Source: Pseudomonadota bacterium
GTDB lineage: Bacteria; Pseudomonadota; Gammaproteobacteria; Steroidobacterales; Woeseiaceae
Direction: 5' to 3'
Assembly: GCA_038534295.1 (NCBI GenBank)
Contig: JBCAXA010000003.1
Coordinates: 263,926-327,925 of the forward strand
Length of the DNA: 64,000 bases
The translations under genes were made by a program, and so were the position numbers. How positions within the stretch are numbered: position 1 is the first letter of the stretch; every line of letters starts with the position of its first letter. Below the pieces are notes generated by a model. That model searched no databases, had not been told where the DNA came from, and was given only the letters and a program-made list of their open reading frames with translations. Below, one piece after another: positions 9,041 through 26,916 of the stretch.

Positions 9041-9052
9041 TTCGGCACATTC

Positions 9053-9076
9053 GGGAGGGGGCGTTCGCCCCCTCCC
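9053..9076. terminator. Perfect GC hairpin (GGGAGGGGGCG-TT-CGCCCCCTCCC) between convergent genes; likely bidirectional terminator.
   Basis: An 11-bp perfect stem with a 2-nt loop, located between the + gene ending at 9040 and the - gene ending at 9223. Confidence 0.5.
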
Positions 9077-9222
9077 ATCTACGGCGATAGCTCAAAAGCT
9101 GGGAGACTAACAGGTGATGTCTGGACTCGTGCGTTTGAAGCAAACTTCACGGTGACATTCTTCCAATCTGATGCAAATTACGCATTTCGTGTGCATCTTT
9201 TTGCAGGGCTTCCTCCAGCTCG

Positions 9223-10776: not shown

Positions 10777-11072
10777 TGCTACTTGTTGATCTAGGAGTTT
10801 TACAGATCGCGCTCGTTGTCATCGGCCGCCAAGGCGCGACAGCAATCGAGACGGACACACCGAGCGCTCGCCTATTTTTGGCGGCTTGGCTTTTCCCGTG
10901 GACCCGCCAGCGGTTGCGGGCGCAATCTCCGGTCTCCTCAGTCGTTTCATAACTCTGCGCGCTGGTCCAACGGCACAGTGCCCTGGCCACGCCGATAGGC
11001 GGGTTCGAGACCCATCGGGTCCACCAGATTCACGCAATCCGCATCTCCATACAACGCTATGGACTGCGGCCT

Positions 11073-11990
11073 GTGAAAAACAAAGACGTACTGGAAATTA
11101 TCGAGTGTCTACCCAACGAGAGAACACTCTTCTATTACTTCAAAGATCGCTACGCGCTGGAGATGCTGCGCCTCGCGATCAATGAGTCGGCGACCGTCGG
11201 TGCGCTGCGCCGAAGTCCTATTGCTGCCTTGCTCGACAAGCCCATCGTCAAGGCGACGGTTCGCGGTGACGGGCTCGTGATTGCAGAAGCGCTACGCCAC
11301 GTTTACCGCCAAGAACACGAGATCTACCGGCTGACGCTCGATGCCTGGGGCTCGGGATCGTGTATCGGCGATCAAACGTCCCGCCCGGGCCGCAACCTCG
11401 TCCTACAACTCAATTTCAGCAACAAGCACGATACGGCCTACAAGGAGTTGATTACCTGCGAGGGCATTAGTCCTTTCATGTCGTACGCACACCCGGTTGC
11501 GCTGGACGGCTTGAATACGCTGGCGTGGTCCCGGTTGGATATCGATCTGGCGACAGGCGAGGCGCTCATCGAAGAGATCCAGAGTGACTGGTTGCGATTT
11601 GCGGCGCACGCGTTTCAATGTTCGCGAAACTGGCGACGAGCTTTCCGCTACGGCGGTGTCGGGTTATCTGTGCGCAACTTGCAGACCTACGTGCGTGACG
11701 TGCTGGCGCCGCACCAGTCGATTTGGGACGAGGCCATGCTCATGGCGACGATTTGGTTCCTGCGTTACGAACTCGGTGTGCGAACCATCTATTTTCACAC
11801 CCATGCATCCGGTGCGGCGCTAAAGCGGATCGAGGGGCGCCTGCCGCCGCGTTCGATCTACGAAGCACTGCCAAAACGGTTCTGTTTTCAAAAGTCGGAC
11901 GCTAAGCCGTCGTTCTTGCACGTCAAAAGTCGCCGCTCGGCGCGACGGAAACTGCTCGATCAGGCTAGGTTTCGCGTGCTTGCGCTCTAA
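11073..11990 (+). CDS. Hypothetical protein (305 aa).
   Basis: ORF only; no motif recognised. It sits between the two 48-nt tRNA-3'-like repeats. Confidence 0.4.
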   Translation: MKNKDVLEIIECLPNERTLFYYFKDRYALEMLRLAINESATVGALRRSPIAALLDKPIVKATVRGDGLVIAEALRHVYRQEHEIYRLTLDAWGSGSCIGDQTSRPGRNLVLQLNFSNKHDTAYKELITCEGISPFMSYAHPVALDGLNTLAWSRLDIDLATGEALIEEIQSDWLRFAAHAFQCSRNWRRAFRYGGVGLSVRNLQTYVRDVLAPHQSIWDEAMLMATIWFLRYELGVRTIYFHTHASGAALKRIEGRLPPRSIYEALPKRFCFQKSDAKPSFLHVKSRRSARRKLLDQARFRVLAL

Positions 11991-12022
11991 TCGACAGATC
12001 GACGGAGCCGTCGACGGACGCG

Positions 12023-14344
12023 TCAGAACCCAATGACGCCACCGTAGATGGCTCCGCCGACGATTCCTATAGAAATGATCGCGCGCAGTGTGGCCGGCCC
12101 AAAACCATGGGCGAGCTGGAACCGATTCCAAAGATCCAGTTTGCGTTGCAGCACATGTTCCTGGCCCGGCAGGAGGGTTGGGTAGCCACTGGGGGCATTG
12201 CCGGGATCCGGCGCTGGACCAGGATCAGTGCCGTCCGTGCTGTGTTTAGCGACCGCCGTTTCCCGTTTGATCATTTCCTCCAGCGCCGCCGATCGGACGA
12301 TGCCCAGCGCGTAGGTCAGGTTGTCCATGATCTGCGATGCGACTCGACACCAGTCGACCCAGTTGTCTTTGGTGACGTCATCGATAGCGAACTTCGGAAA
12401 CTTCTCCGCCCAATTGTCGATGCCCGTCGCGCTGGCGATCGGCGCCGGGAGAACAATCTGTTCGGCAAAAGAGGAAACCTCGCGGAGCTTTTGCTGCACT
12501 TGATTGCAAACGCCCAGCATGCGCTTTTTCTCGAAATAACCGATCTGTCCGTCCGCAGTGATTACCTGCCACGTGTTTACCAACAGCGCTTGCTCGTTGC
12601 TGACCACCGCATGCAAGTGTTCGGTGCTGTGCAACAGCCGAACGAGTCCCAGCAGGTAGCTGTCCCAACCCTGACCGAGGGCCTTGGCCGCGGCCAGGTG
12701 CGCTTGCCGGCAGTTGGCGTCGTGCGTCTTGAGCTCCTCGCCGAGCGCTTTGCGTTCCGCAGCGACCTGCTCAATTGCATCCGGAATATCGCTCTTGTCG
12801 AGCTCTTCGCCGCGATGGCGAATAACGCCGCCGGAGGGTTTTAAATCGCCGGCAGCGAGCGCTTCCAAGGTGTGTCGCTCGGCGTCGAGGCTCCGACATT
12901 GCTCCAAGCGTTCCGCGATTGCTTCAGGATAAAGCTGCTGATGCGTAACGGCATGCTTGTCTTGCAAAGTCGCACACTCGAGCATTTCGTCGACACTGGC
13001 AAAGTTGCGTACCGGGCTTCGTGACAGATACGTGCCGCGGAACTCGGAGGACAGTGACGCCTTGTTAAACCGGCGCGTGACCGCCTCTTCACCATGTACG
13101 GTGTCGAGCTCGTCAATCTTGTCGGCGTTGTAGAAGCTGCGGCTTATCTGTTCACGAAGGGCCGGTGGATCTTTGAACACGAGCCAGGCGGACCGACTGT
13201 CGATATCGGCCGGTACGTAAACGCCTTTGGCGTTGTCTTCGCGGTCTCGGTTCGGCGGATGGGTCGACCACATCTGTGGTGGCGTCGCCATCTGCTCGGT
13301 AAATACACGATGCTCAGCCGCATCGTCGCTGTCCGGTTCGGGTGCCTTGCCGTACGTGTCATCGTTGAGCACGCGACCAATCGTTGAGACTGCCTCCAGC
13401 TGCGCGTCGAAAAGGTCGCCGATCCGTTTGCCGTTGCCGGCTTCCTGGCCAGCAATGTCGAGCGTGGTCTGCCAAGCTTCATCGGCCGCTTGCAGTTTGT
13501 GCAGCGCGTTGACCAGCGCATCGCTGCCGGTCACAGAAACGGCGACGAGGTCGGCGTTGAATTCCATTTCGCGGCTTAGCGCTCGCTCCGCCATGATCAC
13601 GATGGAGAACAGCGTGTCCATCAACGAGCGAATCGACCAAATAACGAGGGCCAAGATCCAGCCGATCCACGCGATGCGTATGTCGATGCGACCGATGAAC
13701 CGGACCACCGAATCCAGCCAATCGCGTGTCGCGACCATGTGCGAAATGATCTGCTGCGCTACGTATACCCAGCGGCCGACCGCCATCGCGCCTTGGGCGA
13801 AATGCCCGAACTCGTGCGCCAACACGGCTTTCAGTTCGCCGAGATTGAGCACGTTGACGAGCCCCAGGCCGACAATCAGATTTTTCTTCGAGGGGAAGAT
13901 GAGGTTGATTAGTGATAGGTCGTAAAACACCGCCGCGTTCACTTCCGGCGTAATGAACACCCGGTGCGGCTTCGGTGCGCCAATCTCATCGGCCAGGCGA
14001 TGCAAGAAATCGAACAGGACCGGTTCGTCGTCTGCGGTCACTTCAACGCCGCCCGGATCGCCCGACTTTCGTACCGTGAAAAGTGACTTAACCAAGAAGA
14101 CGGTCAGCAGTACCGAGATGCCCGTGACGACGATATGGAAGAAGTCGGAGTCGCCGGCCTGTATTCGGCGGAAGTTGTTGTACGCGATGATGGCGAAGCT
14201 CGCCGTCAGCGCCAGGTAAAAGAGAATGAATGTGAGCAAGCCGGCCATCGCGAGCCAGGCTTGGCGCCGATAGCTTCCGGTGGCGCGGGTCAGGCCTTGC
14301 GGAACGTCTCTGGGGCTTTCCGGGTAATGCGTGGCGTCTGACAT
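12023..14344 (-). CDS. M48-family zinc metallopeptidase (HtpX/Ste24-like) with N-terminal TM helices and a roughly 400-aa C-terminal extension.
   Basis: HEXXH motif LAHEFGHFAQG, downstream EFNADLVAVSVTGSDALVNALHKL (M48 third-ligand region), and hydrophobic N-terminal segments. Confidence 0.65.
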   Translation of the reverse strand: MSDATHYPESPRDVPQGLTRATGSYRRQAWLAMAGLLTFILFYLALTASFAIIAYNNFRRIQAGDSDFFHIVVTGISVLLTVFLVKSLFTVRKSGDPGGVEVTADDEPVLFDFLHRLADEIGAPKPHRVFITPEVNAAVFYDLSLINLIFPSKKNLIVGLGLVNVLNLGELKAVLAHEFGHFAQGAMAVGRWVYVAQQIISHMVATRDWLDSVVRFIGRIDIRIAWIGWILALVIWSIRSLMDTLFSIVIMAERALSREMEFNADLVAVSVTGSDALVNALHKLQAADEAWQTTLDIAGQEAGNGKRIGDLFDAQLEAVSTIGRVLNDDTYGKAPEPDSDDAAEHRVFTEQMATPPQMWSTHPPNRDREDNAKGVYVPADIDSRSAWLVFKDPPALREQISRSFYNADKIDELDTVHGEEAVTRRFNKASLSSEFRGTYLSRSPVRNFASVDEMLECATLQDKHAVTHQQLYPEAIAERLEQCRSLDAERHTLEALAAGDLKPSGGVIRHRGEELDKSDIPDAIEQVAAERKALGEELKTHDANCRQAHLAAAKALGQGWDSYLLGLVRLLHSTEHLHAVVSNEQALLVNTWQVITADGQIGYFEKKRMLGVCNQVQQKLREVSSFAEQIVLPAPIASATGIDNWAEKFPKFAIDDVTKDNWVDWCRVASQIMDNLTYALGIVRSAALEEMIKRETAVAKHSTDGTDPGPAPDPGNAPSGYPTLLPGQEHVLQRKLDLWNRFQLAHGFGPATLRAIISIGIVGGAIYGGVIGF

Positions 14345-14871: not shown

Positions 14872-15891
14872 GTGCCGTGGCAGATACTGACGCGCTGGCG
14901 AAAAGGGAAAACTCCGATGATCGTTCCATCGCACTGGGCGGAAGCCAAAGAGAGAGTTGTTATTGATGGCCAAGCGAGGACGTATCGCCGTTTCGGTTGG
15001 TCAAACGATAGCGAGGCTGATGCACTGGAGCGGGCTCGCGAGCGGGTCGAGGACGCCGCAGAGCGCGCGTCTCGCGGTGAAAAAGTTCGTCTCATTGATC
15101 GAAAGGTTCCGTACAACGGCGCCGAAGGCCTGCCGATTCGAGAAGAAGTCATCGCTCGCCATGGCGATACCGTCATCACGCGAAACTCGTACGGCGCGTT
15201 GTGTCTGAACACGCCGGACGTTTTGTTTGCCGACGTCGATTTCACGCCGCCCAGCTACGCGGCGTATGGCTGGATGGTTTTCTCTGTGATCGTCGGTACA
15301 GGCGTCGCGTTGACCATGAGCGGCTGGGGCGTCACTGCGATCAGCATTGCGTTTCTGGTGGCCGCCATTCTCGCGGCGCCGATCGGCAAGCTCATTGGTC
15401 GACTGGTATCGAGTGCGTCGCGCGATCCGGTGGCGGTGTCGATGCAGCGGATCGAGGCGTTTGCTGACAAGCATCCATCCTGGTCCTTGCGAGTCTATCG
15501 AACGCCAAACGGACTACGAATACTCGCCATGCACGCGGTTTTCGACCCGGTCGGTGACGACGCGCTGGCTTTTCTGCGGGCCGTCGGCAGCGATAAGAAT
15601 TACGTGCGTATGTGCCGTAATCAACGCTGCTTCCGTGCCCGGGTGAGCCCAAAACCGTGGCGCATCGACATTGCACACATCAAGCCGCGGCCGGGTGTTT
15701 GGCCGATTCGGCCGGAGCGGATGGCCGAGCGCGAAAGTTGGGTAGACGACTACGAGCGTAAATCTCGTGACTACGCGTCCTGCCGGTACGTGAGTACGGT
15801 GGGCATGAGTCACTCCGACAGACGCTGCGAGGATGTCTGTCGCCTCCACGATGAGCTCTGCCGCTCAGATCGGGACCTGCCTCTGGCCTAG
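14872..15891 (+). CDS. Hypothetical membrane protein (one or two TM helices, AYGWMVFSVIVGTGVALTMSGWGVTAISIAFLVAAILAAPI).
   Basis: ORF with a central hydrophobic region. The true start is probably the M at about 14917 (MIVPSHW). Confidence 0.4.
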   Translation: MPWQILTRWRKGKTPMIVPSHWAEAKERVVIDGQARTYRRFGWSNDSEADALERARERVEDAAERASRGEKVRLIDRKVPYNGAEGLPIREEVIARHGDTVITRNSYGALCLNTPDVLFADVDFTPPSYAAYGWMVFSVIVGTGVALTMSGWGVTAISIAFLVAAILAAPIGKLIGRLVSSASRDPVAVSMQRIEAFADKHPSWSLRVYRTPNGLRILAMHAVFDPVGDDALAFLRAVGSDKNYVRMCRNQRCFRARVSPKPWRIDIAHIKPRPGVWPIRPERMAERESWVDDYERKSRDYASCRYVSTVGMSHSDRRCEDVCRLHDELCRSDRDLPLA

Positions 15892-16000
15892 CGCTTGCGG
15901 TGCTTGGAAACGCTGCTGTAACGAATTTGTTACGTGTAAGAGATTTAACATAACATTTCCATCGATATACAATTATTAGTAATTAAAACAACAAATTAAA

Positions 16001-16047
16001 TAATTACATGTGAGAGTCTTGCGTTATCACATGTGAGTCTGTATAGT
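16001..16047 (+). promoter_or_regulatory. AT-rich promoter island (15892-16047) with two copies of a 10-bp palindrome: TTACATGTGA at 16004-16013 and TCACATGTGA at 16027-16036. Candidate -35 TTGCGT at 16018-16023 and -10 TATAGT at 16042-16047.
   Basis: Sharp local AT-rich stretch in a GC-rich window; palindromes and hexamers read directly. The second palindrome lies in the promoter spacer, suggesting repressor control of the downstream operon. Confidence 0.45.
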
Positions 16048-16054
16048 GCTGGCC

Positions 16055-16681
16055 ATGAACGTGAAAACGTCAGCACACTACCAGCGCGAGTACCGGCGCC
16101 GCCTGCGTGAGCAGGGCCTTGTAAAAAAGGAGATCTGGATCCGTCCGGAGAACGCCGACCGGGCCCGCGCGGTAGAAAAGGAGCTTCGTGACGAGAGTGC
16201 CAACGGCAATGCGTCCGGCGGTCGCGATTCACGCAGTCCCTGGCGTACCGGTGCGCTTTACGACGAGCTTGCAAACGACCCGCTCGTCCGCGATGCGCAC
16301 GCGAGCATCGAATTGATCGAAGGCGTCGATCCGACGCTGCATCTGATCATGCACGACTACGGTGATCTGCCGGTATTCGTGTCTGTTGCTGGCGATCAAA
16401 TCATTGCCGAATCGGTGCTATGGCCGGTATCGCTGGTACGCGATTCCATCGAGTTTAACGAGACCATTCTGCGGACCCACAAGTACTTCCCGCTGTCGAC
16501 GATTTGCCTCGGCCAGCGGATGGATCAGGACTACTACCTGATGTTTGGGTCGCTGAGTTCCGAATCGTCATTGGCGGACATCGTCCACGAGATCGAAGTT
16601 CTTGCCAGTAACGTTATCCACGCCACTGAGGCGTATGTCGATTTACTGCAATCAGATCACGTATCTGAAGGAGAGAAGTGA
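16055..16681 (+). CDS. Hypothetical protein (about 208 aa), first gene of the PspA-flotillin operon.
   Basis: ORF; the basic N-terminus (YRRRLREQGLVKKE) could be nucleic-acid binding. The track start is a GTG at 16046. Confidence 0.45.
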   Translation: MNVKTSAHYQREYRRRLREQGLVKKEIWIRPENADRARAVEKELRDESANGNASGGRDSRSPWRTGALYDELANDPLVRDAHASIELIEGVDPTLHLIMHDYGDLPVFVSVAGDQIIAESVLWPVSLVRDSIEFNETILRTHKYFPLSTICLGQRMDQDYYLMFGSLSSESSLADIVHEIEVLASNVIHATEAYVDLLQSDHVSEGEK

Positions 16682-17364
16682 TGAACGTCTGGTCGAAAAT
16701 GATGACCGCGTTGCGCGGCGGTATTAACGAAGCCGGCGAGGTAATCGTCGACAGCCAGGCGCTGCGCATTCTGGACCAGGAAGTCCGTGACGCTGCGGAG
16801 GAACTGAAACGTTCCAAAGACAGCTTGGCGGCAATCATTGCGCGGCAAAAGGTCTCCGAGGAGCGTTCGACGAAGATCGCTGAGGAGATCGCCGAGCACG
16901 AAGGCTATGCGATGGCGGCGATCGAAAAGGACGACGAAACGCTCGCCCTTGAAGTTGCCGAGAAAATCTCTGCGCTCGAAGTGAAGTTCGAGACCGAGAA
17001 AGCAGCCGGCGCCGGTTATGAAGAAAGCGCCAATCAGCTGCGCGACGCGATCGCTGACGCCGAGCGCGACATTCAGCGCATGAAGCAGCAGATCGACACC
17101 GTCAAGGCCACGGACAGCGTCCAGAAAGCCCAGGCGGCTGTGTCCGAACGGCACAGTGGTTCGGATTCCAAGCTGCGTACGGCCATGGAGTCACTGGAGC
17201 GTATTAAAGAGCGCCAGGAACTTCGGTCTGCACAAATGAAGGCAGCGCGTGAGATTGCAACCGAGAGCGGAGATGCGTCCCTGTCAGACAAGCTCGAGGC
17301 GGCCGGTATCACGAAGCACAGCCGCAGCGCCAAGGAAATCCTGGAGCGGCTGAAAGCCAAGTAA
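16681..17364 (+). CDS. PspA/IM30 (Vipp1/ESCRT-III-like) family protein.
   Basis: GAAGGAGAG RBS; TGATG stop/start overlap with the upstream gene. It is all-helical, and its N-terminus WSKMMTALRGGINEAGEVIVDSQALRILDQEVRDAAEEL resembles the PspA N-terminus. Length about 227 aa. Confidence 0.7.
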   Translation: MNVWSKMMTALRGGINEAGEVIVDSQALRILDQEVRDAAEELKRSKDSLAAIIARQKVSEERSTKIAEEIAEHEGYAMAAIEKDDETLALEVAEKISALEVKFETEKAAGAGYEESANQLRDAIADAERDIQRMKQQIDTVKATDSVQKAQAAVSERHSGSDSKLRTAMESLERIKERQELRSAQMKAAREIATESGDASLSDKLEAAGITKHSRSAKEILERLKAK

Positions 17365-17407: not shown

Positions 17408-18100
17408 ATGTTCGCCATACTGTTCAGCGACAAGATGGATCCGTTCTATCAGAACATCGCGTCGTTCCCAACGGCGGTCTTCACGGTCCTCCTCGTGCTC
17501 AGCGTGTTCTTCTGGGCCGGTGCGGTACTTGGTTTTATCGATCTCGACTTTCTCGATTTCGATACCGACGTCGACCTTGACGTCGCCGACCTCAACGCCG
17601 ATTCGCCGCATACCGGCCCCGATGTGCTCGCCGGCTTGCTGCTTAGGCTCGGTCTGACCGGGGTGCCGGTAACGGTGAGCTTGTCGATCCTCATTCTGAT
17701 CGGCTGGTTCATCTGCTACTACGCCGTGTACTTGATCAATCCGATCGTGCCGGGGCGGTTTCTCGAGATCATCGTCGGTATTCCGATCCTCATCGGTTCG
17801 CTGTACCTCGCGGCGCTGATTACTGCGCAGCTCATCAAGCCGCTGCGGCCGTTGTTCGAGAAAGCGACCCAGGAGACCCATAAACAACTGTTGGGTCAGA
17901 CAGCCGTCGTGCGCACGTCGCGCGTCGACAAAGATTTTGGCGAAGCCACCGTCGATGACGGCGGCGCCGGCCTGATCCTCAAGGTCCGCGCTACCGGCGA
18001 CGACACGTTTCAGCGGGGCGATCGTGTCGTGCTCATCGAGCGCATCGACGAGGCCAGCACGTTCCGCGTGATTTCAGAAGACGAGTTCGTCGGTCAGTAG
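17408..18100 (+). CDS. YqiJ/NfeD-like inner-membrane protein (TM helices plus C-terminal beta-rich soluble domain).
   Basis: GAGGGAGG RBS. Three or four hydrophobic helices are followed by a C-terminal domain (VVRTSRVDKDFGEATVDDGGAGLILKVRATGDDTFQRGDRVVLIE) typical of NfeD OB-like tails. It sits immediately upstream of a flotillin gene, as in yqiJK. Confidence 0.55.
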   Translation: MFAILFSDKMDPFYQNIASFPTAVFTVLLVLSVFFWAGAVLGFIDLDFLDFDTDVDLDVADLNADSPHTGPDVLAGLLLRLGLTGVPVTVSLSILILIGWFICYYAVYLINPIVPGRFLEIIVGIPILIGSLYLAALITAQLIKPLRPLFEKATQETHKQLLGQTAVVRTSRVDKDFGEATVDDGGAGLILKVRATGDDTFQRGDRVVLIERIDEASTFRVISEDEFVGQ

Positions 18101-18139: not shown

Positions 18140-19999
18140 ATGGCGGATTTGTCCGTACTCATGCCCATCGTGGTCGGCGTCGGTGTAACGCTGCTGATCC
18201 TGCTGGGCCTCGCGGGGCTGTTCAAAGCGTTCTACGTGAAGGTCGAGCAAGGCACGGCGCTGATCGTCAATGACATGAGCTCCAAGCCGAAGGTGCATTT
18301 CACCGGTGCCCTCGTCTATCCGATCATCTACAAAAAGGAGCTGATGCGCATCTCGCTGATCACGCTCGAAGTGGATCGGCGCGGTAAAGACGGACTGATC
18401 TGTCGCGACAACATGCGCGCGGACATCACGGTCGCGTTCTACCTCCGGGTCAACGAAACGGCCGAAGACGTTCTAAAGGTCGCCAAATCCATTGGCGCGA
18501 ACCGCGCGTCGGACAAGATTGCGGTCGATCAGTTGTTCTCCGCAAAATTTTCCGAAGCGCTGAAAACCGTCGGTAAGCAAATCGAGTTCGTGCAGCTGTT
18601 CGAGAATCGCCAAGAGTTTCGGGAGAAGATCATCGAGGTCATCGGCGACGACCTGAACGGTTATGTCCTCGAGGACGTTGCTATCGATTACCTCGAGCAG
18701 ACGCCGAAGGGAGCCTTGGATGCATCGAACATCCTCGACGCCGAAGGCATCAAGAAGATCACCGAGCTCACGGCGGCACAGAACGTTCGAACCAACGAAC
18801 TCGAGCGCGACGAGCAGCTGGCGATCAAAAAGAAAGACGTAACTACCGTCGAGGCCATGCTGGAACTCGAACGCCAGCAGGCCGACGCCGAAGCGCGTCA
18901 GCAGCGCGAGATTCTGTCGATTCAGGCACGCGAGGAAGCAGAAACTCGCAAGGTGCAGGAAGAAGAGCGCCGCCGCGCCGAACAGACCCACATCCAGGTC
19001 GTTCAGGACCTGTCGGTGCAGACCGAGAATCAGAAGCGCGAGGTCGAAGTCGCTGAGCAAAATCGTCAGCGGGCGGTCGCCATCGAGCAGGAGAAAGTGG
19101 TTCGGGCGCGGGATCTCGAGGTCGTCGCTCGCGAGCGCGAAGTGGCGGTCGAAAGCGTTCTTGCCGAGAAAGCGGTCGAGGTCGAAAAGAAAGAAATCGC
19201 CAATGTCATTCGCGAACGCGTTGCGGTCGACAAGACCGTTGCGGTCGAAGAGGAACGCATCAAAGAGGTACGCGAAGTCTCCGAAGCAGACCGGCTGAAG
19301 CAAACAGCCGTTCTTGCGGCCGAAGCCACCGCCGAAGAAGAGCGCATCAAAGAAGTCGTCGCCGCAAAAGCGACGGAGACGGCGGCGAACCACAAAGCCA
19401 AGGAAATCACGACACTGGCCGAAGCGCGGCTTGCGGCGGCCGGCAAAGACTCAGAGGCGAAGAAAGTGCTTGCCGAAGGTGTGCAGGCCGAAGAGGCGGC
19501 CCCAGGGCTTGCCAAGGCAGATATCGTCCGTGCCACCGGTACGGCCGAAGCCGAAGTCATCAAAGAGACCGGTACCGCCGAAGCTTCGGCTAAGACCGAA
19601 GTGGGCATGGCCAACGCCGCGATCACCAAGGCGCAGTTCCAGGCCGAAGCCGATGGTCTTACCGACAAGTTTGCAGCCATGGCCGGCATGAGTGGCGAGA
19701 CTCGCGAGCACGAGGAATTTCGCATGGCGCTCGAAACCGCCTTCAAGGAAGCCCTGGCATCGATTGAGGCCGGTAAGGAAATTGCCAAGGAGAACGCCGA
19801 GATCCTGTCCATTGCGCTCGAGAAAGCGCACATCGACATCGTCGGCGGTGAGGAGCACTTCTTCGACAACTTCGCCAAGTCGCTGTCGATCGGCAAAGCG
19901 GTCGACGGTCTCGCCGACAAATCCAGCGTGGTCAAAGCCTTGCTCGCCAAGGTGGCCACGTCCGGTGACAACGGCGCCGGTACAACGTCCAAATCGTAA
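18140..19999 (+). CDS. Flotillin-family SPFH protein (YqiK/FloT-like) with a long E/A/R/K-rich coiled-coil.
   Basis: N-terminal TM, then an SPFH core (GTALIVNDMSSKPKVHFTGALVYPIIYKKELMRISLITLEVDRRGKDGLICRDNMRADITVAFYLRV). An extensive EA-repeat coiled-coil follows. Confidence 0.8.
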   Translation: MADLSVLMPIVVGVGVTLLILLGLAGLFKAFYVKVEQGTALIVNDMSSKPKVHFTGALVYPIIYKKELMRISLITLEVDRRGKDGLICRDNMRADITVAFYLRVNETAEDVLKVAKSIGANRASDKIAVDQLFSAKFSEALKTVGKQIEFVQLFENRQEFREKIIEVIGDDLNGYVLEDVAIDYLEQTPKGALDASNILDAEGIKKITELTAAQNVRTNELERDEQLAIKKKDVTTVEAMLELERQQADAEARQQREILSIQAREEAETRKVQEEERRRAEQTHIQVVQDLSVQTENQKREVEVAEQNRQRAVAIEQEKVVRARDLEVVAREREVAVESVLAEKAVEVEKKEIANVIRERVAVDKTVAVEEERIKEVREVSEADRLKQTAVLAAEATAEEERIKEVVAAKATETAANHKAKEITTLAEARLAAAGKDSEAKKVLAEGVQAEEAAPGLAKADIVRATGTAEAEVIKETGTAEASAKTEVGMANAAITKAQFQAEADGLTDKFAAMAGMSGETREHEEFRMALETAFKEALASIEAGKEIAKENAEILSIALEKAHIDIVGGEEHFFDNFAKSLSIGKAVDGLADKSSVVKALLAKVATSGDNGAGTTSKS

Positions 20000-20007
20000 G
20001 ACCTGTC

Positions 20008-20028
20008 CGGCCGCCCGTCGGGGCGGCC
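20008..20028 (+). terminator. Intergenic GC hairpin (GGCCGCCC-GTCG-GGGCGGCC) followed by TCCTTTC; possible partial terminator/attenuator between the flotillin gene and the giant ATPase gene.
   Basis: An 8-bp perfect stem read directly; the downstream T-tract is weak. Confidence 0.35.
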
Positions 20029-20058
20029 GTCCTTTCACCGCAACGGGAGCGATGACGC

Positions 20059-23000
20059 GTGGAAAAAGGCGCCAAACCGACCAATCTCGTCGAACAAGCC
20101 GTCGCCGAAGGCGGTGCGTACGAGGTCATTCAGCAGCGACTGGTAACGCAGGGCGGCGAGCTCGATGCACTGGCGCAGCGTCTGAACGAAGGTCGGGCCA
20201 ACGAGTTCGGTTCGACCGAAATGGCGCTGGCCGCACGCTCGCGCGTGCGTACCGAAAACAACTGCGTCGGCCGGGACATCGTTCAAGTCGGCGAGCTTTT
20301 GGTCTTCGGCTACAACGTCTTCATTGGCCTCAAGACCACGACGAGCATCGAAGATGTCTTCGCGCTTTATCGACTGCAGCGCGAAGACGACAGCTACTCG
20401 ATGTCGCCGGTACCGCTGGAAGGCTCGTTCCTTACCGATGCCCGCTTTCGGCACGACTTCGACGAGCTGTATCGATACTACAAAGAAACACGGTTGATAC
20501 AGCTGGTCCACAAAGGCGGCAAACTGCTTGCGAGTTTTCAGATCGGCGAGCGGCTCGAGGACACCCGCGTATTTCGCTGGGAAGTGTCGCCGGACGGCAA
20601 GCAGCTGACATACATCGACAACCGCGGTGAGCGCGACATCGAACTGCCGCACCCTTACGACTTCGAGTGGCAGCCAACGACCCGCGACGACATCGTGCAC
20701 GGTCGTTTCCCACACATCAACGTTCGCAATCGCGTCTTCATCGAGATTGCCGAAGGCGAGCTGGCGATCAAGCTCGAAGACAACACCGAGGGCGGTCAGG
20801 GCGTACACAGCGAAGCTGTCGATGAGCCGCATCAATCCCTGGATGACTGCGAGGTCGACTACGCCGAGGTTGGCGAGCTGCTGTTGTTTCGCGTGCTGCC
20901 CTACAAAGAAGAAGACCGGCGCTATTACGTCTTCAACGCGTTTACGTCGTCGGTGACGCGCATCGACGCCATTGGCGATTCGTGCATCCAATTGCCAGAA
21001 GACCATGGTTTGATCTTCCCCGGCGGCTACTACCTCGCAACCGGTGAAACGCGCTCATTTAACGATCAAGAGTCCGACGGTTTGAAGTTCAAGCGAAGCT
21101 TTCGCTCGCCGAACGGCGAAGACGTGCTGTACGTCTTCTATGAGCCCAGCGAAGGCATTGTCGCGCTGCTGTCGTACAACTTGATTTCCAAGTCGCTGCA
21201 GAACCCCATCTTCGGCCACGGCTATGCGCTGGCCCAGGACGGCACGATCATTGTCTTTAACGCCGATCACGAGGCGACCCGGATCCACCCGATGCAGATC
21301 TGGATAACGCCATTCGTATCGGATGAGTTCGCGAGCAAGCAGCCGGTCGGAGAGTCGTTTTTCTCCCGCATCGGTAACGCCGAGTTGGTGCGGGGCGTCT
21401 CCGACGTCTTTAGCATTACCCAGCTCATTCGCGAGTCTGAAGCCAGCGTCGCGCATTACGAAGCGCTGCGTCGATCGGCGACGAGGCTGTTCGACAGTCA
21501 TTTCTGGATCGATGATCCGGACGCCTTCGGGATCGGCACGGCTGTGCGCGAGATTACCGCTACCGTTGAGCTCGTCATCGACGAGTTCGAGAAAGTCGAG
21601 GCCATCAAGCGCCAGTCCGACGCTGCTTTGCGCGAGGCTGAGGACACGCAGCAGAACATCGAAGCCACGACGCAGTCCGGCGCTTGGAACAGTGTCGACG
21701 AGTTTGTCGATGCGCTCGATCGGATCCGGCGCCAGCGCGGTCATCTGCAAACGATTCGCGAGTATCGATACATCGATGTCGATCGGATAGACGCGATGGA
21801 CGAAGCGCTCATCGAGCGTAGTGAAGAACTCGCCGGCAAGACGGCCGAGTTTCTTGCCGAAGAAGACGCCTTACAGCCGTATCGCGACCAAATCGTCACG
21901 GTTGCCGACGGCCTCGAAGCGCTCGAAACCGTGGCCGCCATCGAGCCACAGCTCGAAGCGCTCGATAAGGTGGCGGCCGGTCTCGACCTGTTGTCCGAGC
22001 TGATCGCGAGCTTGAAAATCGCCGATGCGAGCGTGCAAACGGCGATCGTCGACTCGATCTCGCAGGTCTACGGCAGCCTCAATCAGACGCGAGCCCGCGT
22101 TCGCCAGCGACGCGAGACCCTTGGTGCGAGCGAGTCCGTGGCGCAGTTCGGCGCACAGTTCAAACTGTTCGGGCAAAGCGTCGTCAACGCACTCAGCCTC
22201 GCCACCTCGCCGGAGCGTTGCGAAGATCAGCTGTCGCGATTGCTCGTGCAGCTCGAAGAATTGGAAAGCCAGTTCAGCGACTCCGAAGCGTTCCTCGCCG
22301 ACATCATGCAAAAGCGCGAGGAGGTCTACGAGACGTTCGAGGCGCACAAGCAACGCTTGCTCGACCAGCGCCAGGCGCGCGCACAGACCATGGCCGATGC
22401 GGTCTCGCGCATGTTGGCTAATGTTGAACGGCGCACCAAGCGCTTCCAGTCCCAGGACGAGCTCAACACGTACCTAGCGTCCGATCCGCTGGTCGTCAAA
22501 ATTCGCGACCTAATTGCCGATCTGCGGGAACTCGATAGTGCCGTCAAAGCCGACGACGCCGAAGCACGCTTGACAATGTTGCGCGATCAGGCGGTTCGGT
22601 CCCTGCGCGACAAGACCGAGCTGTACGCCGACGACGGTCGGGTTATCCGACTCGGGTCACGACACCGCTTTTCCGTCAATCGCGAAGACCTCGATCTCAC
22701 GATCATCCCGCGCGATGACGAGCTGTATCTGCATCTGATCGGTACGCAATTTTTCGAGCGTATCGACGACGCCGAACTCAATGCGCTCAAGCCCTATTGG
22801 GTGTTGAGCGGCGAGTCTGAGTCGGCTGACGTCTATCGCTCGGAGTATCTGGCGTTTCGGGTCATCGAAGCGGCCCGCAACGGCGACGACGGTCTCAGCT
22901 GGCCTGATCTCGTCGCCGCGTCGACGGACGAGGATGCGCTGCAAACGCTCTGCCGCAACGTCGCTACGCAACGTTACAAAGATGGCTACGAGAAAGGCGT

Positions 23001-25305
23001 TCACGACGCTGACGCCGCGCAGATGCTGCGTGTGCTCGTGCCCATGCTTGAAAAGGGCGATCTGCTGCGTTTCGGTCCTGAGTCTCGGGCACTCGCCCAG
23101 TTGTTCTGGGCCGCACGCGAAGACGGTGCCGAGGAGGCAGTAGCCCGACTGGCCGTGCTGCCGGCCGAAGCCAAAGCGGCGGCTGCCATGCAGGCCACGT
23201 TCGACGATCCGCGCGCGGCGACCCTAATTGAAGAAGAGCTCACCGAGCATCTGCGCGCGTTCGCTGCGACGAACGATGTCGACAGCGATGCGCTGACGAT
23301 CACCGATGCCGCGCGTTACCTCACCGCAGAGATTGCACGCGATGACATCAAGTTCGTTACCTCTGGACAGTCGCGGCAGTTGCTTCGCGATTTTCGTGCC
23401 GCCGTCACCGGCACAGCCGGCAAGCAGTTCAAGGCCGCGCTCGATAACTTGCAGGGTAATCCTGGCCGGCAGTATTCGCTCGCCTGCGCCGGGTTCTACG
23501 CCATGGTTGATACGAGCGAGGACCGGTCAATCCGGCACTATGTCCCGGAAGCCGCCGTCGAACTCGTCGTCGGTCGCGGGCTGGCCCGCCGCACGCTCAA
23601 AGTCGAGCCGCAGGCCACGGTCGATGGCCTGTTTGGTGAGCACGCACGCGTCGAAAACGGCACGCTGCAGATTCAGCTCGATGAGTTTCTGGGTCGCCTC
23701 GGGCACCACACCACGCAGGTCGTACCGGCCTACCAATCGTACCTGGCCGTACGCCAAGGCGTACTGGACGGCGCGCGCGATGAACTTCGCCTCGACGAGT
23801 TCAAACCGCGACCGCTGAGCTCTTTTGTGCGCAACAAGCTGATCAACGAAGCCTATCTGCCGTTGATTGGTGACAACCTCGCCAAGCAAATCGGCACGGC
23901 CGGCGATTCGAAGCGCTCTGATCTCAGCGGTCTGTTGATGATGATCTCGCCGCCGGGTTACGGCAAAACCACGTTGATGGAGTACGTCGCAAGCCGACTC
24001 GGCCTGACCTTCGTGAAAATCAACGGGCCGGCGCTTGGCCACCGCGTTGAGTCACTCGATCCGGAAACGGCGCCCGACTCGGCGGCAGCCAATGAGCTGA
24101 ACAAACTGAACCTTGCGCTCGAGATGGGCGACAACGTCATGCTGTACGTCGACGACATTCAGCACACCAACCCGGCTTTCCTGCAGAAGTTCATCTCGCT
24201 CTGTGATTCGACCCGGCGCATCGAGGGCGTTTGGAAAGGACGTACGCGAACGTACGATCTGCGTGGTCGCAAGTTTTGCGTCGTGATGGCCGGTAACCCA
24301 TACACCGAGTCGGGCGAGACTTTCCGCGTGCCCGACATGCTCGCCAACCGTGCCGATATCTACAATTTAGGCGACATCCTCAGTGGCAAGGAGGCGCAGT
24401 TCGAGCTGAGCTACATCGAGAACTCGTTGACCGCGAACCCCGTACTGGCGCCGTTGGCGACCCGTGATATCGCCGATGTCTACAAATTCATCGACATGGC
24501 CCGCGGGCGCACGGTGGCGACCACCGAGCTCAGCCACGCTTACAGCGCTGCCGAGGTCACCGAGATCACGCGGGTTCTCGAGCGCATGTTCCAGATTCAG
24601 GAAGTCATCCTGCTGGTCAACCGCCAGTACATCGCGTCCGCCGCGCAGGAAGACAAGTATCGTGTCGAGCCGCGCTTTCTGCTGCAGGGTAGCTATCGCA
24701 ACATGAACAAGCTGGCCGAGAAGATTTCGGCCGTCATGAACGATGCGGAGCTCAACGATCTCATCGACGATCACTACCGCGGTGAAGCGCAGCTGCTGAC
24801 GCAGGGCACCGAGGCCAACGTGCTGAAGCTCGCCGAGCTTCGCGGTGTTCTAACGGACGAGCAGCAAGTCCGCTGGGAGCAAATCAAGCAGGACTTCCTG
24901 CGTAACAAGTCGCTCGGTGGCGATAAGTCTGACGTCGGCACACGGATTTCGGCCCAGCTTGCCGATCTGGTCGACAACGTCGGCAGCCTCGGCGAGCAGC
25001 TGCAACCCAATGGCGTGCTCACCGAGCTGCGGGCGCAAAGCGCCAAGTCATCGGAAACGCTGGGCGCCGCACTCGACGCGCTGCGTGAGTCCATTGCCGA
25101 GCAGAAGACCACCGTCAACGTCACAAGCAAGCCATCGAAGGAATTCGGTGCCGTGCTGGAGACGTTAAACGAAACGATCCAGCACACGCTCTTTCCGCTA
25201 GTGCGCAGCATGGACAAGCGCATCGCGCAGGACCTCGAGGCGCACGAGAAGCTGGAGCAGTTGGCGAACGATGTTGCATCACTGAAGAATAGAATCAGCG
25301 GGTGA
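20059..25305 (+). CDS. Giant multidomain protein (1748 aa) with N-terminal region, long central coiled-coils, and a C-terminal MoxR/dynein-class (AAA_5-like) AAA+ ATPase domain.
   Basis: GTG start with a GGGAG RBS. Walker A LMMISPPGYGKTTL, Walker B-like VMLYVDDIQH, and sensor region VVMAGNPYTESGETFRVPDMLANRADIY (NP..E..G...P.A..R pattern of MoxR-like AAA). Coiled-coil segments about residues 560-760 and a C-terminal tail. Confidence 0.6.
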   Translation: MEKGAKPTNLVEQAVAEGGAYEVIQQRLVTQGGELDALAQRLNEGRANEFGSTEMALAARSRVRTENNCVGRDIVQVGELLVFGYNVFIGLKTTTSIEDVFALYRLQREDDSYSMSPVPLEGSFLTDARFRHDFDELYRYYKETRLIQLVHKGGKLLASFQIGERLEDTRVFRWEVSPDGKQLTYIDNRGERDIELPHPYDFEWQPTTRDDIVHGRFPHINVRNRVFIEIAEGELAIKLEDNTEGGQGVHSEAVDEPHQSLDDCEVDYAEVGELLLFRVLPYKEEDRRYYVFNAFTSSVTRIDAIGDSCIQLPEDHGLIFPGGYYLATGETRSFNDQESDGLKFKRSFRSPNGEDVLYVFYEPSEGIVALLSYNLISKSLQNPIFGHGYALAQDGTIIVFNADHEATRIHPMQIWITPFVSDEFASKQPVGESFFSRIGNAELVRGVSDVFSITQLIRESEASVAHYEALRRSATRLFDSHFWIDDPDAFGIGTAVREITATVELVIDEFEKVEAIKRQSDAALREAEDTQQNIEATTQSGAWNSVDEFVDALDRIRRQRGHLQTIREYRYIDVDRIDAMDEALIERSEELAGKTAEFLAEEDALQPYRDQIVTVADGLEALETVAAIEPQLEALDKVAAGLDLLSELIASLKIADASVQTAIVDSISQVYGSLNQTRARVRQRRETLGASESVAQFGAQFKLFGQSVVNALSLATSPERCEDQLSRLLVQLEELESQFSDSEAFLADIMQKREEVYETFEAHKQRLLDQRQARAQTMADAVSRMLANVERRTKRFQSQDELNTYLASDPLVVKIRDLIADLRELDSAVKADDAEARLTMLRDQAVRSLRDKTELYADDGRVIRLGSRHRFSVNREDLDLTIIPRDDELYLHLIGTQFFERIDDAELNALKPYWVLSGESESADVYRSEYLAFRVIEAARNGDDGLSWPDLVAASTDEDALQTLCRNVATQRYKDGYEKGVHDADAAQMLRVLVPMLEKGDLLRFGPESRALAQLFWAAREDGAEEAVARLAVLPAEAKAAAAMQATFDDPRAATLIEEELTEHLRAFAATNDVDSDALTITDAARYLTAEIARDDIKFVTSGQSRQLLRDFRAAVTGTAGKQFKAALDNLQGNPGRQYSLACAGFYAMVDTSEDRSIRHYVPEAAVELVVGRGLARRTLKVEPQATVDGLFGEHARVENGTLQIQLDEFLGRLGHHTTQVVPAYQSYLAVRQGVLDGARDELRLDEFKPRPLSSFVRNKLINEAYLPLIGDNLAKQIGTAGDSKRSDLSGLLMMISPPGYGKTTLMEYVASRLGLTFVKINGPALGHRVESLDPETAPDSAAANELNKLNLALEMGDNVMLYVDDIQHTNPAFLQKFISLCDSTRRIEGVWKGRTRTYDLRGRKFCVVMAGNPYTESGETFRVPDMLANRADIYNLGDILSGKEAQFELSYIENSLTANPVLAPLATRDIADVYKFIDMARGRTVATTELSHAYSAAEVTEITRVLERMFQIQEVILLVNRQYIASAAQEDKYRVEPRFLLQGSYRNMNKLAEKISAVMNDAELNDLIDDHYRGEAQLLTQGTEANVLKLAELRGVLTDEQQVRWEQIKQDFLRNKSLGGDKSDVGTRISAQLADLVDNVGSLGEQLQPNGVLTELRAQSAKSSETLGAALDALRESIAEQKTTVNVTSKPSKEFGAVLETLNETIQHTLFPLVRSMDKRIAQDLEAHEKLEQLANDVASLKNRISG

Positions 25306-25341: not shown

Positions 25342-26484
25342 ATGGATCGTCGCCTCGTGCTCATCATCGTTTTCGTGACCTGCGCTCTGATCATCCTGTT
25401 GGCAAGCCCGTTCGGCCAAGGGTCATTGCCTTACGATTTATCGGCAGACAATCCGAGCAATGCCGGTGTCGAGGTTGCAGGCGCCGAGGTGAACACGACG
25501 GGAACACTTGAGACTCGCCAAGCCGACATACGTATCGCGTTGGAAAAAAGCTGCGCGAATTTCACCAGCAGCGATTCACCGGTGATCGAGCTACCAACGG
25601 ATGTTTACGAGGGTGTCGACGACCCTGAAGCTTGGTTTCGCGAGCTTGTAAGCAAAATGTCGGTGTCGTCAGAACCCGAGCACCTGTATTTCGCCGCCTT
25701 GATTGAGGACGATCCATCGTCGCGCCTGCAACTGCTCAAGCGTGCCATCCAGGGTAATCCGAACGACGCCTTGGTTGTCTGGGGCGCCGTACAAGCTTGC
25801 TCGGAATTCGACGCTTCGCCAACGTGCCCATTATCGGAATGGGAGCCAATGTTGATCGCTGTTGACGGTCAGAACAGCGAGACTTGGATCCGCATCGCCG
25901 CAAACCGTTATGGCTCGGGCGAGTTGGATGCCGCTCTGTCCGCCTTACGGCGAGCTGGCAGCGTCGCTAAGTCCAATGACTATTGGCCGGAAATGATCGA
26001 AATGATCGAACGGGGTCTCGCGGCAAGCACCGATCGGTCATTTTCATGGCGTGCCGGCATGGCTTTCGGTCTTGCCGCAGCCAATCTTCCACGTGTCGGC
26101 GACTACACGCGGATGTGTCGAGACCAATCGCAGCTAAGCGCCGAATGGGCGTATGCGTGCGTTGACTACGGCAAACGAGCCGAAGAACACGGTAAATCAA
26201 TGATGACCGTCGATATCGGACAAGCAATTCAGAAATATGCCCTCCAAGCGCTTGGTGAGTCAGCGTTAGCAGCGGAAGTGGAGAGACGAAGCCGCGCGCG
26301 CAGCCAGCAAGCAAGCGACGCGGTGAGCGACGGCAATGAGCTGCTGATCATTGCGACACCGGCGTTGTTTCACGCCTATTTGGACGCCGTCCGATTGCAT
26401 GGCGAGACCTCGGCGCGGCTTCGTTTCAACGCAGAGATTGCACAGACGCTAAGAGACGGTGAGCTGAAAAACTGCAACGAGTGA
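25342..26484 (+). CDS. Secreted/membrane-anchored hypothetical protein (380 aa).
   Basis: N-terminal hydrophobic signal/anchor (LVLIIVFVTCALIILLASP); the rest is unknown. It follows the giant gene by 37 nt. Confidence 0.4.
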   Translation: MDRRLVLIIVFVTCALIILLASPFGQGSLPYDLSADNPSNAGVEVAGAEVNTTGTLETRQADIRIALEKSCANFTSSDSPVIELPTDVYEGVDDPEAWFRELVSKMSVSSEPEHLYFAALIEDDPSSRLQLLKRAIQGNPNDALVVWGAVQACSEFDASPTCPLSEWEPMLIAVDGQNSETWIRIAANRYGSGELDAALSALRRAGSVAKSNDYWPEMIEMIERGLAASTDRSFSWRAGMAFGLAAANLPRVGDYTRMCRDQSQLSAEWAYACVDYGKRAEEHGKSMMTVDIGQAIQKYALQALGESALAAEVERRSRARSQQASDAVSDGNELLIIATPALFHAYLDAVRLHGETSARLRFNAEIAQTLRDGELKNCNE

Positions 26485-26577
26485 TCGAACCGTCCGGCCA
26501 TAGACAGATTCTCGTAACAGCCGTCTTCAGGGCAGCCAAAGTCCACTGACCGTCAATTGCCACGAGCAAAGGATCAA

Positions 26578-26916
26578 ATGGAATACATAATCGTAATAGC
26601 AATACTCATCGCCGTACTGGTCGTGCCGGTCATGATCGCCGCGCGAATGCTCGGCGCTCAAAACACTGGCTTCGGGTCCGCATTGCTCGCCGTTGTTGTC
26701 ATGGTGATTGTTTCTAAGGGCTTAGAGACCGCTGTGAGCCAGAACATTATTGGTTTGATTATCTCGGCTGCTATCGGTGCGTTCATTTACGCTGGCGTTC
26801 TGGGCACAACTTTTTGGCGTGGATTGGGTATCAGCATTATTTCAACGCTGATTCAGGTGTTTACTCTAATCGTCTTCGTCAGCGTGCTTGTGAGCAGCGG
26901 CGTTGATCTTGGCTAG
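26578..26916 (+). CDS. Small integral membrane protein (about 112 aa, three predicted TM helices).
   Basis: AAGGA RBS before the ATG at 26578; almost entirely hydrophobic. Confidence 0.4.
   Translation: MEYIIVIAILIAVLVVPVMIAARMLGAQNTGFGSALLAVVVMVIVSKGLETAVSQNIIGLIISAAIGAFIYAGVLGTTFWRGLGISIISTLIQVFTLIVFVSVLVSSGVDLG

Follow-up and report, generated by a model that had tools for sequence, protein, structure and literature searches.

A BacE-type giant AAA+ ATPase encoded beside a flotillin-like scaffold gene in a gammaproteobacterial genome

Bacterial flotillin/SPFH cages and the ESCRT-III-like polymers of PspA are thought to organize and repair membranes, and SPFH cages that house an AAA+ machine are familiar from HflK/C-FtsH and prohibitin-m-AAA. 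To our knowledge, no ATPase is known to assemble or recycle bacterial SPFH cages or PspA polymers. Here we studied a 64,000-nucleotide (nt) stretch of contig JBCAXA010000003.1 from a Pseudomonadota bacterium of the family Woeseiaceae (the window, to which all coordinates refer unless a locus is named) and, within it, the gene for a 1748-residue protein at positions 20059 to 25305. With a probability of roughly 50%, this protein is a BacE-type giant cytoplasmic AAA+ ATPase that serves as the energy-consuming subunit of an NfeD/SPFH membrane-scaffold module, which is preceded here by genes for a CesT-like YjfI/BacA protein and for PspA.

Published operons and the gene cluster in the window

The closest described system is the "biofilm-associated cluster" bacABCDEF (PA3732-PA3727) of Pseudomonas aeruginosa, which is co-transcribed according to reverse transcription-PCR (RT-PCR) and in which BacB to BacF are up 6- to 13-fold in a bacA mutant (PMC10948618). 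Two of its products have been assigned to families, PA14_16180 (BacD) being the SPFH protein PaFlo3 and PA14_16160 (BacC) a short NfeD protein (PMC13086221). The operon has a reported sigma-54 promoter and a sixth gene, bacF, and PA3728, given as an "ATPase", is on record as a gene with recurrent mutations in cystic fibrosis isolates. More generally, Ravi et al. (mSystems, 2024) described an operon class that combines CesT/Tir, PspA, band-7/flotillin, YqiJ and a "novel AAA+ with coiled-coil and beta-propeller", and they noted abbreviated band-7/YqiJ/AAA+ versions (PMC11237479). The operon class had therefore been flagged in the literature before this analysis. In Bacillus subtilis, the SPFH protein YdjI links PspA to the membrane (PMC8581546).

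In the window, the ATPase gene is the fifth of a tight same-strand cluster, composed as follows:

16046 to 16681, + strand: YjfI/DUF2170 protein (CesT/Tir-like chaperone fold; BacA-like), first gene of the cluster (Pfam DUF2170, E = 1.1e-46)
16678 to 17364, + strand: PspA/IM30 (YjfJ-type, ESCRT-III superfamily; Pfam PspA_IM30, E = 6.1e-43), overlapping the YjfI gene by 4 nt
17408 to 18100, + strand: short NfeD/YqiJ-YuaF-like membrane protein of 230 residues, with about three transmembrane (TM) segments by hydropathy, an acidic loop and a C-terminal soluble beta domain
18140 to 19999, + strand: divergent flotillin/YqiK-like SPFH protein of 619 residues, with an N-terminal TM segment, an SPFH-like domain and a long E/A/K-rich helical region
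20059 to 25305, + strand: DUF3686-DUF7902-AAA+ protein (BacE-type), GTG start, 1748 codons plus stop

This order (DUF2170/BacA, PspA/BacB, short NfeD/BacC, SPFH/BacD, large "ATPase") is the one found around BacE (PA3728/PA14_16190), and the cluster is of the type described by Ravi et al. It differs from the P. aeruginosa operon in that no sigma-54 -24/-12 promoter was matched between 15890 and 16046, window-wide matches being no commoner than in shuffled sequences, and in that the 380-residue gene downstream of the ATPase gene is not conserved. The RT-PCR primers for strain PA14 translate to PKNNCI and IKVMDR, similar to TENNC(I/V) (residues 65 to 70) and to SMDKR near the C terminus in the family studied here, while a third primer translates to EGDFFN, resembling the "GGE..FFD" of the SPFH C terminus. 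Because of this resemblance, and considering the operon order and the "ATPase" annotation, BacE (PA3728) is very probably a member of the family and a putative ortholog.

To quantify gene linkage, hidden Markov models (HMMs) of the partner proteins were scanned over 90 loci, comprising the window, 9 loci from genomes or assemblies and 80 metagenome loci at 41 to 63% identity. Partners were counted only over loci with enough upstream sequence; PspA and CesT were scored upstream of the ATPase gene, PspA within 6.5 kb. In 68/71 loci (96%), the gene immediately before the ATPase gene on the same strand is an SPFH gene, and an NfeD-like gene lies upstream in 61/65 (94%). PspA was found upstream in 23 of 53 loci (43%) and a CesT-like gene in 21 of 53. 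The same gene order recurs in Flavobacterium, Teredinibacter, Planctomycetota and Nocardia: Flavobacterium litorale, Teredinibacter and a metagenome-assembled genome (MAG) of Planctomycetota carry CesT and/or PspA in addition to the NfeD-like/SPFH/ATPase triad, and the Nocardia locus carries only the triad. Given these counts, we regard the NfeD-like, SPFH and ATPase genes as the core unit, with PspA and CesT as frequent add-ons. The constant partner of the ATPase is thus the flotillin/NfeD pair and not PspA, which is an optional addition to the module, and this is the quantitative result added here. Ravi et al., in contrast, cast the ATPase as a partner of PspA (PMC11237479).

These counts also bear on a role analogous to that of Vps4, in which an AAA+ ring would disassemble or recycle PspA polymers and the SPFH and NfeD-like proteins would be only the recruitment platform. 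According to a 2025 review, bacteria seem to have no Vps4-like ATPase (PMC7619361). As with Vps4 and ESCRT-III, the AAA+ gene of the window stands beside a gene of the ESCRT-III superfamily (pspA), and an analogous recycling role is possible. However, linkage to PspA is not obligatory: it is missing near the ATPase gene in 30 of 53 loci (57%), including Nocardia, whereas SPFH and NfeD are nearly constant. In addition, unlike Vps4, the ATPase is not of the classical clade and has neither an MIT domain nor an aromatic pore loop, and the matches of its helical bundle are non-specific. A Vps4 analog that acts primarily on PspA therefore seems unlikely to us.

The membrane partners themselves are divergent. 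Neither the 230-residue NfeD-like protein nor the 619-residue SPFH protein of the window has a Pfam match, the latter being matched only faintly by NCBIfam FloT (E = 0.004). Both can be aligned with orthologs from six other loci; one NfeD-like ortholog matches Pfam YqiJ_N, one of seven SPFH orthologs matches Band_7 (8.6e-8), and the SPFH family profile weakly matches QmcA (E = 0.035). Hydropathy places one TM segment at the N terminus of the SPFH protein, whose homologs are named "YqiK" or "flotillin family protein" in some sources and are mostly annotated as "hypothetical". Among the best 120 homologs, the SPFH partner is more conserved than the ATPase (71 to 93% versus 54 to 80% identity). 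From its sequence, the flotillin-like partner looks like a distinct SPFH subfamily for which no model exists.

As to the first gene of the cluster, the YjfI/BacA-like protein scores 278 bits on the NCBIfam model "biofilm formation regulator BacA", under the equivalog cut-off of 300. Its first 60 or so residues (16046 to 16240) form a basic extension, YQREYRRRLREQGLVKKEIWIRPEN, ahead of DUF2170, which the NCBIfam BacA model covers as well and which weakly matches the UrfF plasmid repression protein (E = 0.006). It is conceivable that this extension is a regulatory arm that binds DNA or RNA, in keeping with the negative control that BacA has been proposed to exert on its operon.

Domain anatomy and AAA+ motifs of the ATPase

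The open reading frame (ORF) at 20059 to 25305 is uninterrupted on the + strand, as reported in an earlier reading made from the sequence alone (hereafter, the sequence-only reading). A Shine-Dalgarno sequence, GGGAG, lies 9 nt 5' of the GTG start, and an ATG at 20052 is out of frame. Since homologs can be aligned with the protein from about residue 10 onward, the GTG at 20059 is supported as the start. By hydropathy, neither a TM segment nor a signal peptide was found in the 1748 residues. The protein is divided as follows:

20158 to 21504, + strand: Pfam DUF3686, residues 34 to 482
21526 to 22635, + strand: helical, coiled-coil-rich stalk that includes DUF7902, residues ~490 to 859 (composition, heptad score)
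21865 to 22116, + strand: Pfam DUF7902 (PF25472), residues 603 to 686 (E = 2.5e-26; 92.1 bits against a cut-off of 26)
22636 to 23790, + strand: small beta unit (residues 862 to 901) and globular all-helical middle domain (~927 to 1244), from the AlphaFold2 model
23929 to 24378, + strand: AAA+ alpha/beta core, residues 1291 to 1440, the most conserved part of the protein
23947 to 23973, + strand: Walker A, SPPGYGKTT, residues 1297 to 1305, invariant
24139 to 24165, + strand: Walker B, MLYVDDIQH, residues 1361 to 1369, Asp-Asp rather than Asp-Glu; D1365, D1366, Q1368 and H1369 invariant across phyla
24214 to 24258, + strand: predicted pre-sensor-1 beta-hairpin, RRIEGVWKGRTRTYD, residues 1386 to 1400 (AlphaFold2 strands; R1386 and G1390 invariant)
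24286 to 24363, + strand: sensor-1 Asn N1413 (GNPYTE) and candidate arginine finger R1431 (MLANRAD), invariant
24379 to 24918, + strand: enlarged helical lid, residues 1441 to 1620 (AlphaFold2 helices at a predicted local distance difference test score, pLDDT, of 70 to 89)
24685 to 24705, + strand: candidate sensor-2 Arg in QGSYRNM, residues 1543 to 1549; Q1543, G, S, Y and R1547 invariant
24919 to 25302, + strand: variable C-terminal helical tail, residues 1621 to 1748 (helices at low pLDDT, heptad signal at 1716 to 1747)

The first 500 or so residues, in which the sequence-only reading had recognized no motif, turned out to be almost entirely covered by Pfam DUF3686 (PF12458), which matches residues 34 to 482 over profile positions 1 to 448 of 448 (E = 1.7e-192; 640.3 bits against a cut-off of 25). 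A protein identical to the window ATPase is deposited at NCBI as "MAG: DNA repair ATPase [Pseudomonadota bacterium]". Among over 4,000 scored homologs, each of the best 120 is a full-length protein with an identical set of Pfam domains. When residues 1 to 510 were searched against 1.84 billion cluster representatives, 735 clusters (50% identity) matched; their full-length members measure 1590 to 1930 residues, and the match starts within about 40 residues of the N terminus. Because these members all fall in this size range with the domain at the N terminus, we consider the DUF3686-DUF7902-AAA+ architecture to be fixed. Judging from source names, the family occurs in Gammaproteobacteria, Bacteroidota (Flavobacterium, Sphingobacterium), Planctomycetota, Actinomycetota (Nocardia) and Acidobacteriota; no Pseudomonas member was among its 20 named cluster representatives. 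The window protein conforms to the family pattern (~1600 to 1900 residues, DUF3686 at the extreme N terminus, DUF7902 in the helical region) and carries all of SPPGYGKTT, DDIQH, GNPYTE, NRAD and QGSYR, which are invariant in 37 diverse members. By sequence, it belongs to a catalogued bacterial family named "DNA repair ATPase" and is no orphan; its gene is intact and typical of this family and does not stand for a new kind of system.

Shorter relatives were also seen. At locus L005 (positions 9001 to 12123; protein P0310) and in protein P0311, DUF3686 and DUF7902 are combined in proteins of 1040 to 1048 residues that have no AAA+ module and no SPFH/NfeD neighbors, the L005 gene being near an integrase and an Rhs/Tc-toxin gene. 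These versions are either decayed copies or a separate variant without the ATPase.

AlphaFold2 models were built for residues 1 to 510 (pLDDT 83.7; predicted template modeling score 0.80) and 860 to 1748 (pLDDT 74.5). In the first model, a long helix (residues 20 to 50) is followed by an all-beta body of about 27 strands (56 to 416) and by helices (434 to 509) that form a bundle together with the first helix, and this bundle clamps the beta-propeller-like N-terminal domain of the model. The heptad-rich region that the sequence-only reading placed at about residues 560 to 1000 is real in kind and differs in extent: it runs from about 490 to 860, and the residues beyond it form the beta unit and the globular helical domain listed above. 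The stalk is rich in E/Q/A/L/R/K/D (0.61 to 0.64) and poor in P and G (together no more than 0.07), and on a crude in-house heptad measure it exceeds the 99th percentile of shuffled sequences at residues 511 to 540, 762 to 797 and 809 to 838. The middle domain is modeled mostly at pLDDT 85 to 95 and is moderately conserved (0.40), and a fold search of the model found no Protein Data Bank (PDB) match to it above the AAA+ matches. A coiled-coil tail behind the ATPase, also noted from the sequence, is consistent with the heptad signal at 1716 to 1747 and the long helices of the model, and it is the least conserved part of the protein (conservation 0.23, occupancy 0.58). Near the C-terminal end, the short motif FPLVRSMDK is conserved among gammaproteobacterial homologs.

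Motif invariance was judged in 37 family sequences reaching down to 31% identity. The Walker A motif lies at residues 1297 to 1305, close to residue 1300 as the sequence-only reading had noted, and the stretch pointed out behind it, MAGNPYTESGETFRVPDMLANRADIY, at residues 1410 to 1435. Walker A, Walker B (DD), sensor 1, R1431 and GSYR are constant from Gammaproteobacteria to Bacteroidota, Planctomycetota and Actinomycetota; around sensor 1, the invariant residues are G1412, N1413, P1414, Y and T, followed by P1425, D, M, L, N1430, R1431 and D1433. Such invariance down to 31% identity rules out chance as the origin of the motifs. Furthermore, conservation is highest in the AAA core (0.81, compared with 0.40 to 0.55 in the parts of the protein that precede the ATPase module). 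Degeneracy of the motifs, a possibility that the sequence-only reading had left open, is thereby excluded. From the invariant motifs, the protein is predicted to be an active ATPase.

The AAA+ module is divergent. It reaches Pfam AAA_5 at threshold (22.1 bits against a cut-off of 22) and PF00004 AAA over 36 residues only (26.9 against 21.2). Searches of the PDB with the single sequence and with the 37-sequence profile matched only about 35 to 65 residues round the P-loop (NVL, Rix7, RuvB and p97; best E = 9e-4), and since the matches are confined to this region, we discarded the idea of a solved relative. Foldseek with the model of residues 860 to 1748 retrieved RuvB at 8.8e-4; CbbQ and NorQ were among the top fold matches and had the highest sequence identities (18 to 19%). 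In the model, strands 1387 to 1392 and 1395 to 1400 lie between alpha3 and beta4 at pLDDT 60 to 71, and no helix-2 beta-hairpin insert is seen between beta2 (1317 to 1322) and alpha2 (1341 to 1356), where a 4-residue helix and coil are predicted at pLDDT ~82. With a pre-sensor-1 hairpin present and a helix-2 insert absent, the modeled topology resembles that of the RuvB/Lon/Clp-D2 group. Model confidence is low over the sensor 1 and R1431 stretch (pLDDT 37 to 55). No aromatic pore-loop-1 residue was found in the loop between beta2 and alpha2 in 10/10 diverse members, so that remodeling through the appended domains fits better than the threading of a polypeptide.

Both the segment behind sensor 1 and the sensor-2 motif GSYR have a MoxR-like appearance, and the protein could accordingly be imagined as a MoxR-style chaperone that matures, inserts or extracts a client membrane complex within the SPFH cage, as FtsH does in HflK/C, and leaves the scaffold itself untouched. 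With the MoxR family (RavA, CbbQ, NorQ; AAA_5/AAA_3) it shares the series NP-x-E-x-G ... P-x-x-L-x-R after sensor 1, a GxSxR-type sensor 2 and the pre-sensor-1 hairpin, and the AAA_5 score at cut-off and the fold matches to CbbQ and NorQ point the same way, as does the precedent of HflK/C-FtsH for a partnership of SPFH and AAA+ proteins. On the other hand, AAA_5 is reached only at threshold, no helix-2 insert is modeled, Walker B reads DD and there is no protease domain. No VWA domain was matched in the window neighbors or in the annotated related loci, and there is no conserved client gene, the largest downstream cluster comprising 6 of 63 loci. Overall, a MoxR-style chaperone appears quite unlikely. 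The comparison with HflK/C-FtsH is nevertheless instructive: in both cases an SPFH scaffold is coupled to an AAA+ protein at the membrane, genetically and functionally for HflK/C-FtsH, by gene linkage for the system described here. FtsH, however, is a membrane-anchored AAA protease of the classical clade, whereas the window ATPase has no TM segment and no protease domain; its AAA+ module is of the type with a pre-sensor-1 hairpin and is preceded by an N-terminal extension of 1290 residues. Similarly, an AAA+ module joined to a long helical stalk recalls dynein, but dynein and midasin concatenate six modules per chain where the window ATPase has one.

The database label raises a further explanation, namely an SMC/RecN-like DNA-repair ATPase. 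It agrees with the Pfam and PGAP names, the long helical region, the sub-threshold RuvB matches at the P-loop and a weak match to LmuB (E = 0.005). Against this, the protein has a single C-terminal AAA+ module, with its sole P-loop at residue 1297 in a contiguous fold, and no split ABC/SMC head; Pfam gave no SMC_N or AAA_23 match, and the likeness to RuvB is limited to about 40 residues round the P-loop even with the family profile. No DNA-binding domain was found, and all conserved neighbors are membrane or membrane-associated proteins. We find this explanation hardly credible, and the "DNA repair" label of the family, being without support, looks like a misnomer.

Flanking genes and regulatory sequences

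Around the cluster, the window contains the following genes:

12023 to 14344, - strand: 773-residue protein with an M48 peptidase domain, upstream of the cluster
14872 to 15891, + strand: 339-residue ORF with one central hydrophobic segment and no family match, between the M48 gene and the cluster
25342 to 26484, same strand as the ATPase gene: 380-residue ORF with an N-terminal hydrophobic segment and a faint TPR match
26557 to 26916, same strand as the ATPase gene: 119-residue multi-TM ORF

No connection of the M48 and 339-residue genes to the cluster was established. The 380- and 119-residue ORFs have no counterpart at the other loci examined and for this reason are probably outside the system.

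Upstream of the cluster, an AT-rich region (15945 to 16043) contains a sigma-70-like promoter match, TTAACA-17-TACAAT, at 15945 to 15973. It also contains two direct copies of AT(T/C)ACATGTGAG, 23 nt apart (16003 to 16014 and 16026 to 16037), each with the palindrome ACATGT; these repeats (16003 to 16037) could be an operator. A GC-rich hairpin of 9 bp, GGCCGCCCG-UCGG-GGCGGCC, separates the SPFH and ATPase genes at 20008 to 20030, 9 nt past the SPFH stop and ahead of the ribosome-binding site of the ATPase gene, with a weak U-tract after it. Such a hairpin could attenuate read-through and lower the ATPase:SPFH ratio. As its fold is no better than that of shuffled sequences (z = -1.0), we make no claim for it.

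No gene is conserved downstream of the ATPase gene. In the largest downstream cluster (6/63 loci), found at L007 (14302 to 14871) and at L018, L020, L023, L044 and L046, a related ORF of about 180 to 196 residues starts within a few bases of the ATPase stop; the L007 member carries the annotation of a rhomboid-family intramembrane protease. In one sub-lineage that has the triad but lacks PspA and CesT, the gene 3' of the ATPase gene is TelA-like (toxic anion resistance; L004, 13989 to 15227; L030, L032, L033 and L035). In one MAG, a DUF4178/DUF350/spermine-synthase set directly follows the ATPase operon (L006, 14230 to 18162), and this set corresponds to the other PspA-linked operon class of Ravi et al.

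Neighbors of this kind lead to the question of whether the module is an anti-phage or inter-bacterial conflict system in which the ATPase drives a response to membrane perturbation by phage. In P. aeruginosa, PA3728-PA3732 belong to a set of 17 genes that were induced in every sample infected with phage (PMC12041424), and TelA, rhomboid and polyamine/DUF4178 stress genes are sometimes adjacent. The induction, however, would fit a general envelope-stress response equally well. PADLOC gave no significant match for the ATPase, SPFH or NfeD-like proteins, only weak coiled-coil matches (LmuB for the ATPase, at the E value given above; PbeC/JetC for PspA, 1e-4 to 3e-3). No relatives of the ATPase were found among 2.9 million viral contigs, the conserved core contains no nuclease or toxin effector, and the spread of the family looks broad and vertical, with a fixed architecture. 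A conflict system is thus very unlikely.

Remodeling of a membrane scaffold as the proposed function

The sequence-only reading proposed a remodeling ATPase. This holds insofar as the protein has a remodeling-type AAA+ module with MoxR-like motifs, but both the catalogued family and the operon that explains it had been missed. Adjacency to the gene of a flotillin-like scaffold makes remodeling of a membrane scaffold, and not DNA repair, the most likely function. The domain anatomy, the invariant ATPase motifs, the lack of TM segments and the near-obligate gene linkage are observed, and they are the basis on which we infer cytoplasmic location, topology, oligomerization, docking by the propeller and the nature of the substrate. 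A single TM helix at the N terminus would tether the otherwise largely cytoplasmic SPFH protein, which together with the NfeD-like protein would form an oligomeric cage or scaffold on the inner membrane face. The ATPase would oligomerize via its C-terminal AAA+ module, presumably as a ring; docking may fall to the N-terminal beta-propeller and helical bundle, and the helical stalk could act as a spacer or lever. By binding and hydrolyzing ATP, the ATPase could then build up, open, take apart or shift the SPFH scaffold, its clients or recruited PspA polymers in envelope stress.

Several points weigh against this proposal. The gene linkage is compatible with the SPFH scaffold, its clients, the NfeD protein or PspA as the target, and no partner-binding motif was identified in the ATPase. 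At three of 71 loci (L012, L054 and L069), a full-length ATPase gene has neither an SPFH nor an NfeD-like gene in the fetched flank. Fusions of SPFH and ATPase, which would have served as a Rosetta stone, were called in 2 of 150 representatives (P0243 and P0245); both look like truncated or merged calls and were dismissed as evidence. The Asp-Asp Walker B, which is likewise present in DnaA, could mean slow, switch-like hydrolysis instead of motor activity. Finally, the family is functionally uncharacterized in the literature, and a P. aeruginosa mutant of the linked SPFH gene paFlo3 forms only about 20% less biofilm and otherwise has mild phenotypes (PMC13086221).

Tentatively, scaffold remodeling can be put in more specific terms. 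DUF3686 AAA+ proteins might form cytoplasmic rings of about a megadalton that open or disassemble flotillin/SPFH cages and recycle PspA where it is present; they would then be a counterpart of Vps4 from a different AAA+ lineage, with the propeller and stalk as a substrate arm.

Since the family is genetically linked to the SPFH/NfeD pair across five or more phyla, with PspA joining in some 40% of cases, it is a strong candidate for the ATPase that remodels bacterial SPFH or ESCRT-III-like scaffolds. The operon of its likely P. aeruginosa member has been linked to biofilm formation, virulence, the response to phage infection and recurrent mutation in cystic fibrosis isolates. For the ATPase, the first partner to consider is the flotillin-like protein rather than PspA.

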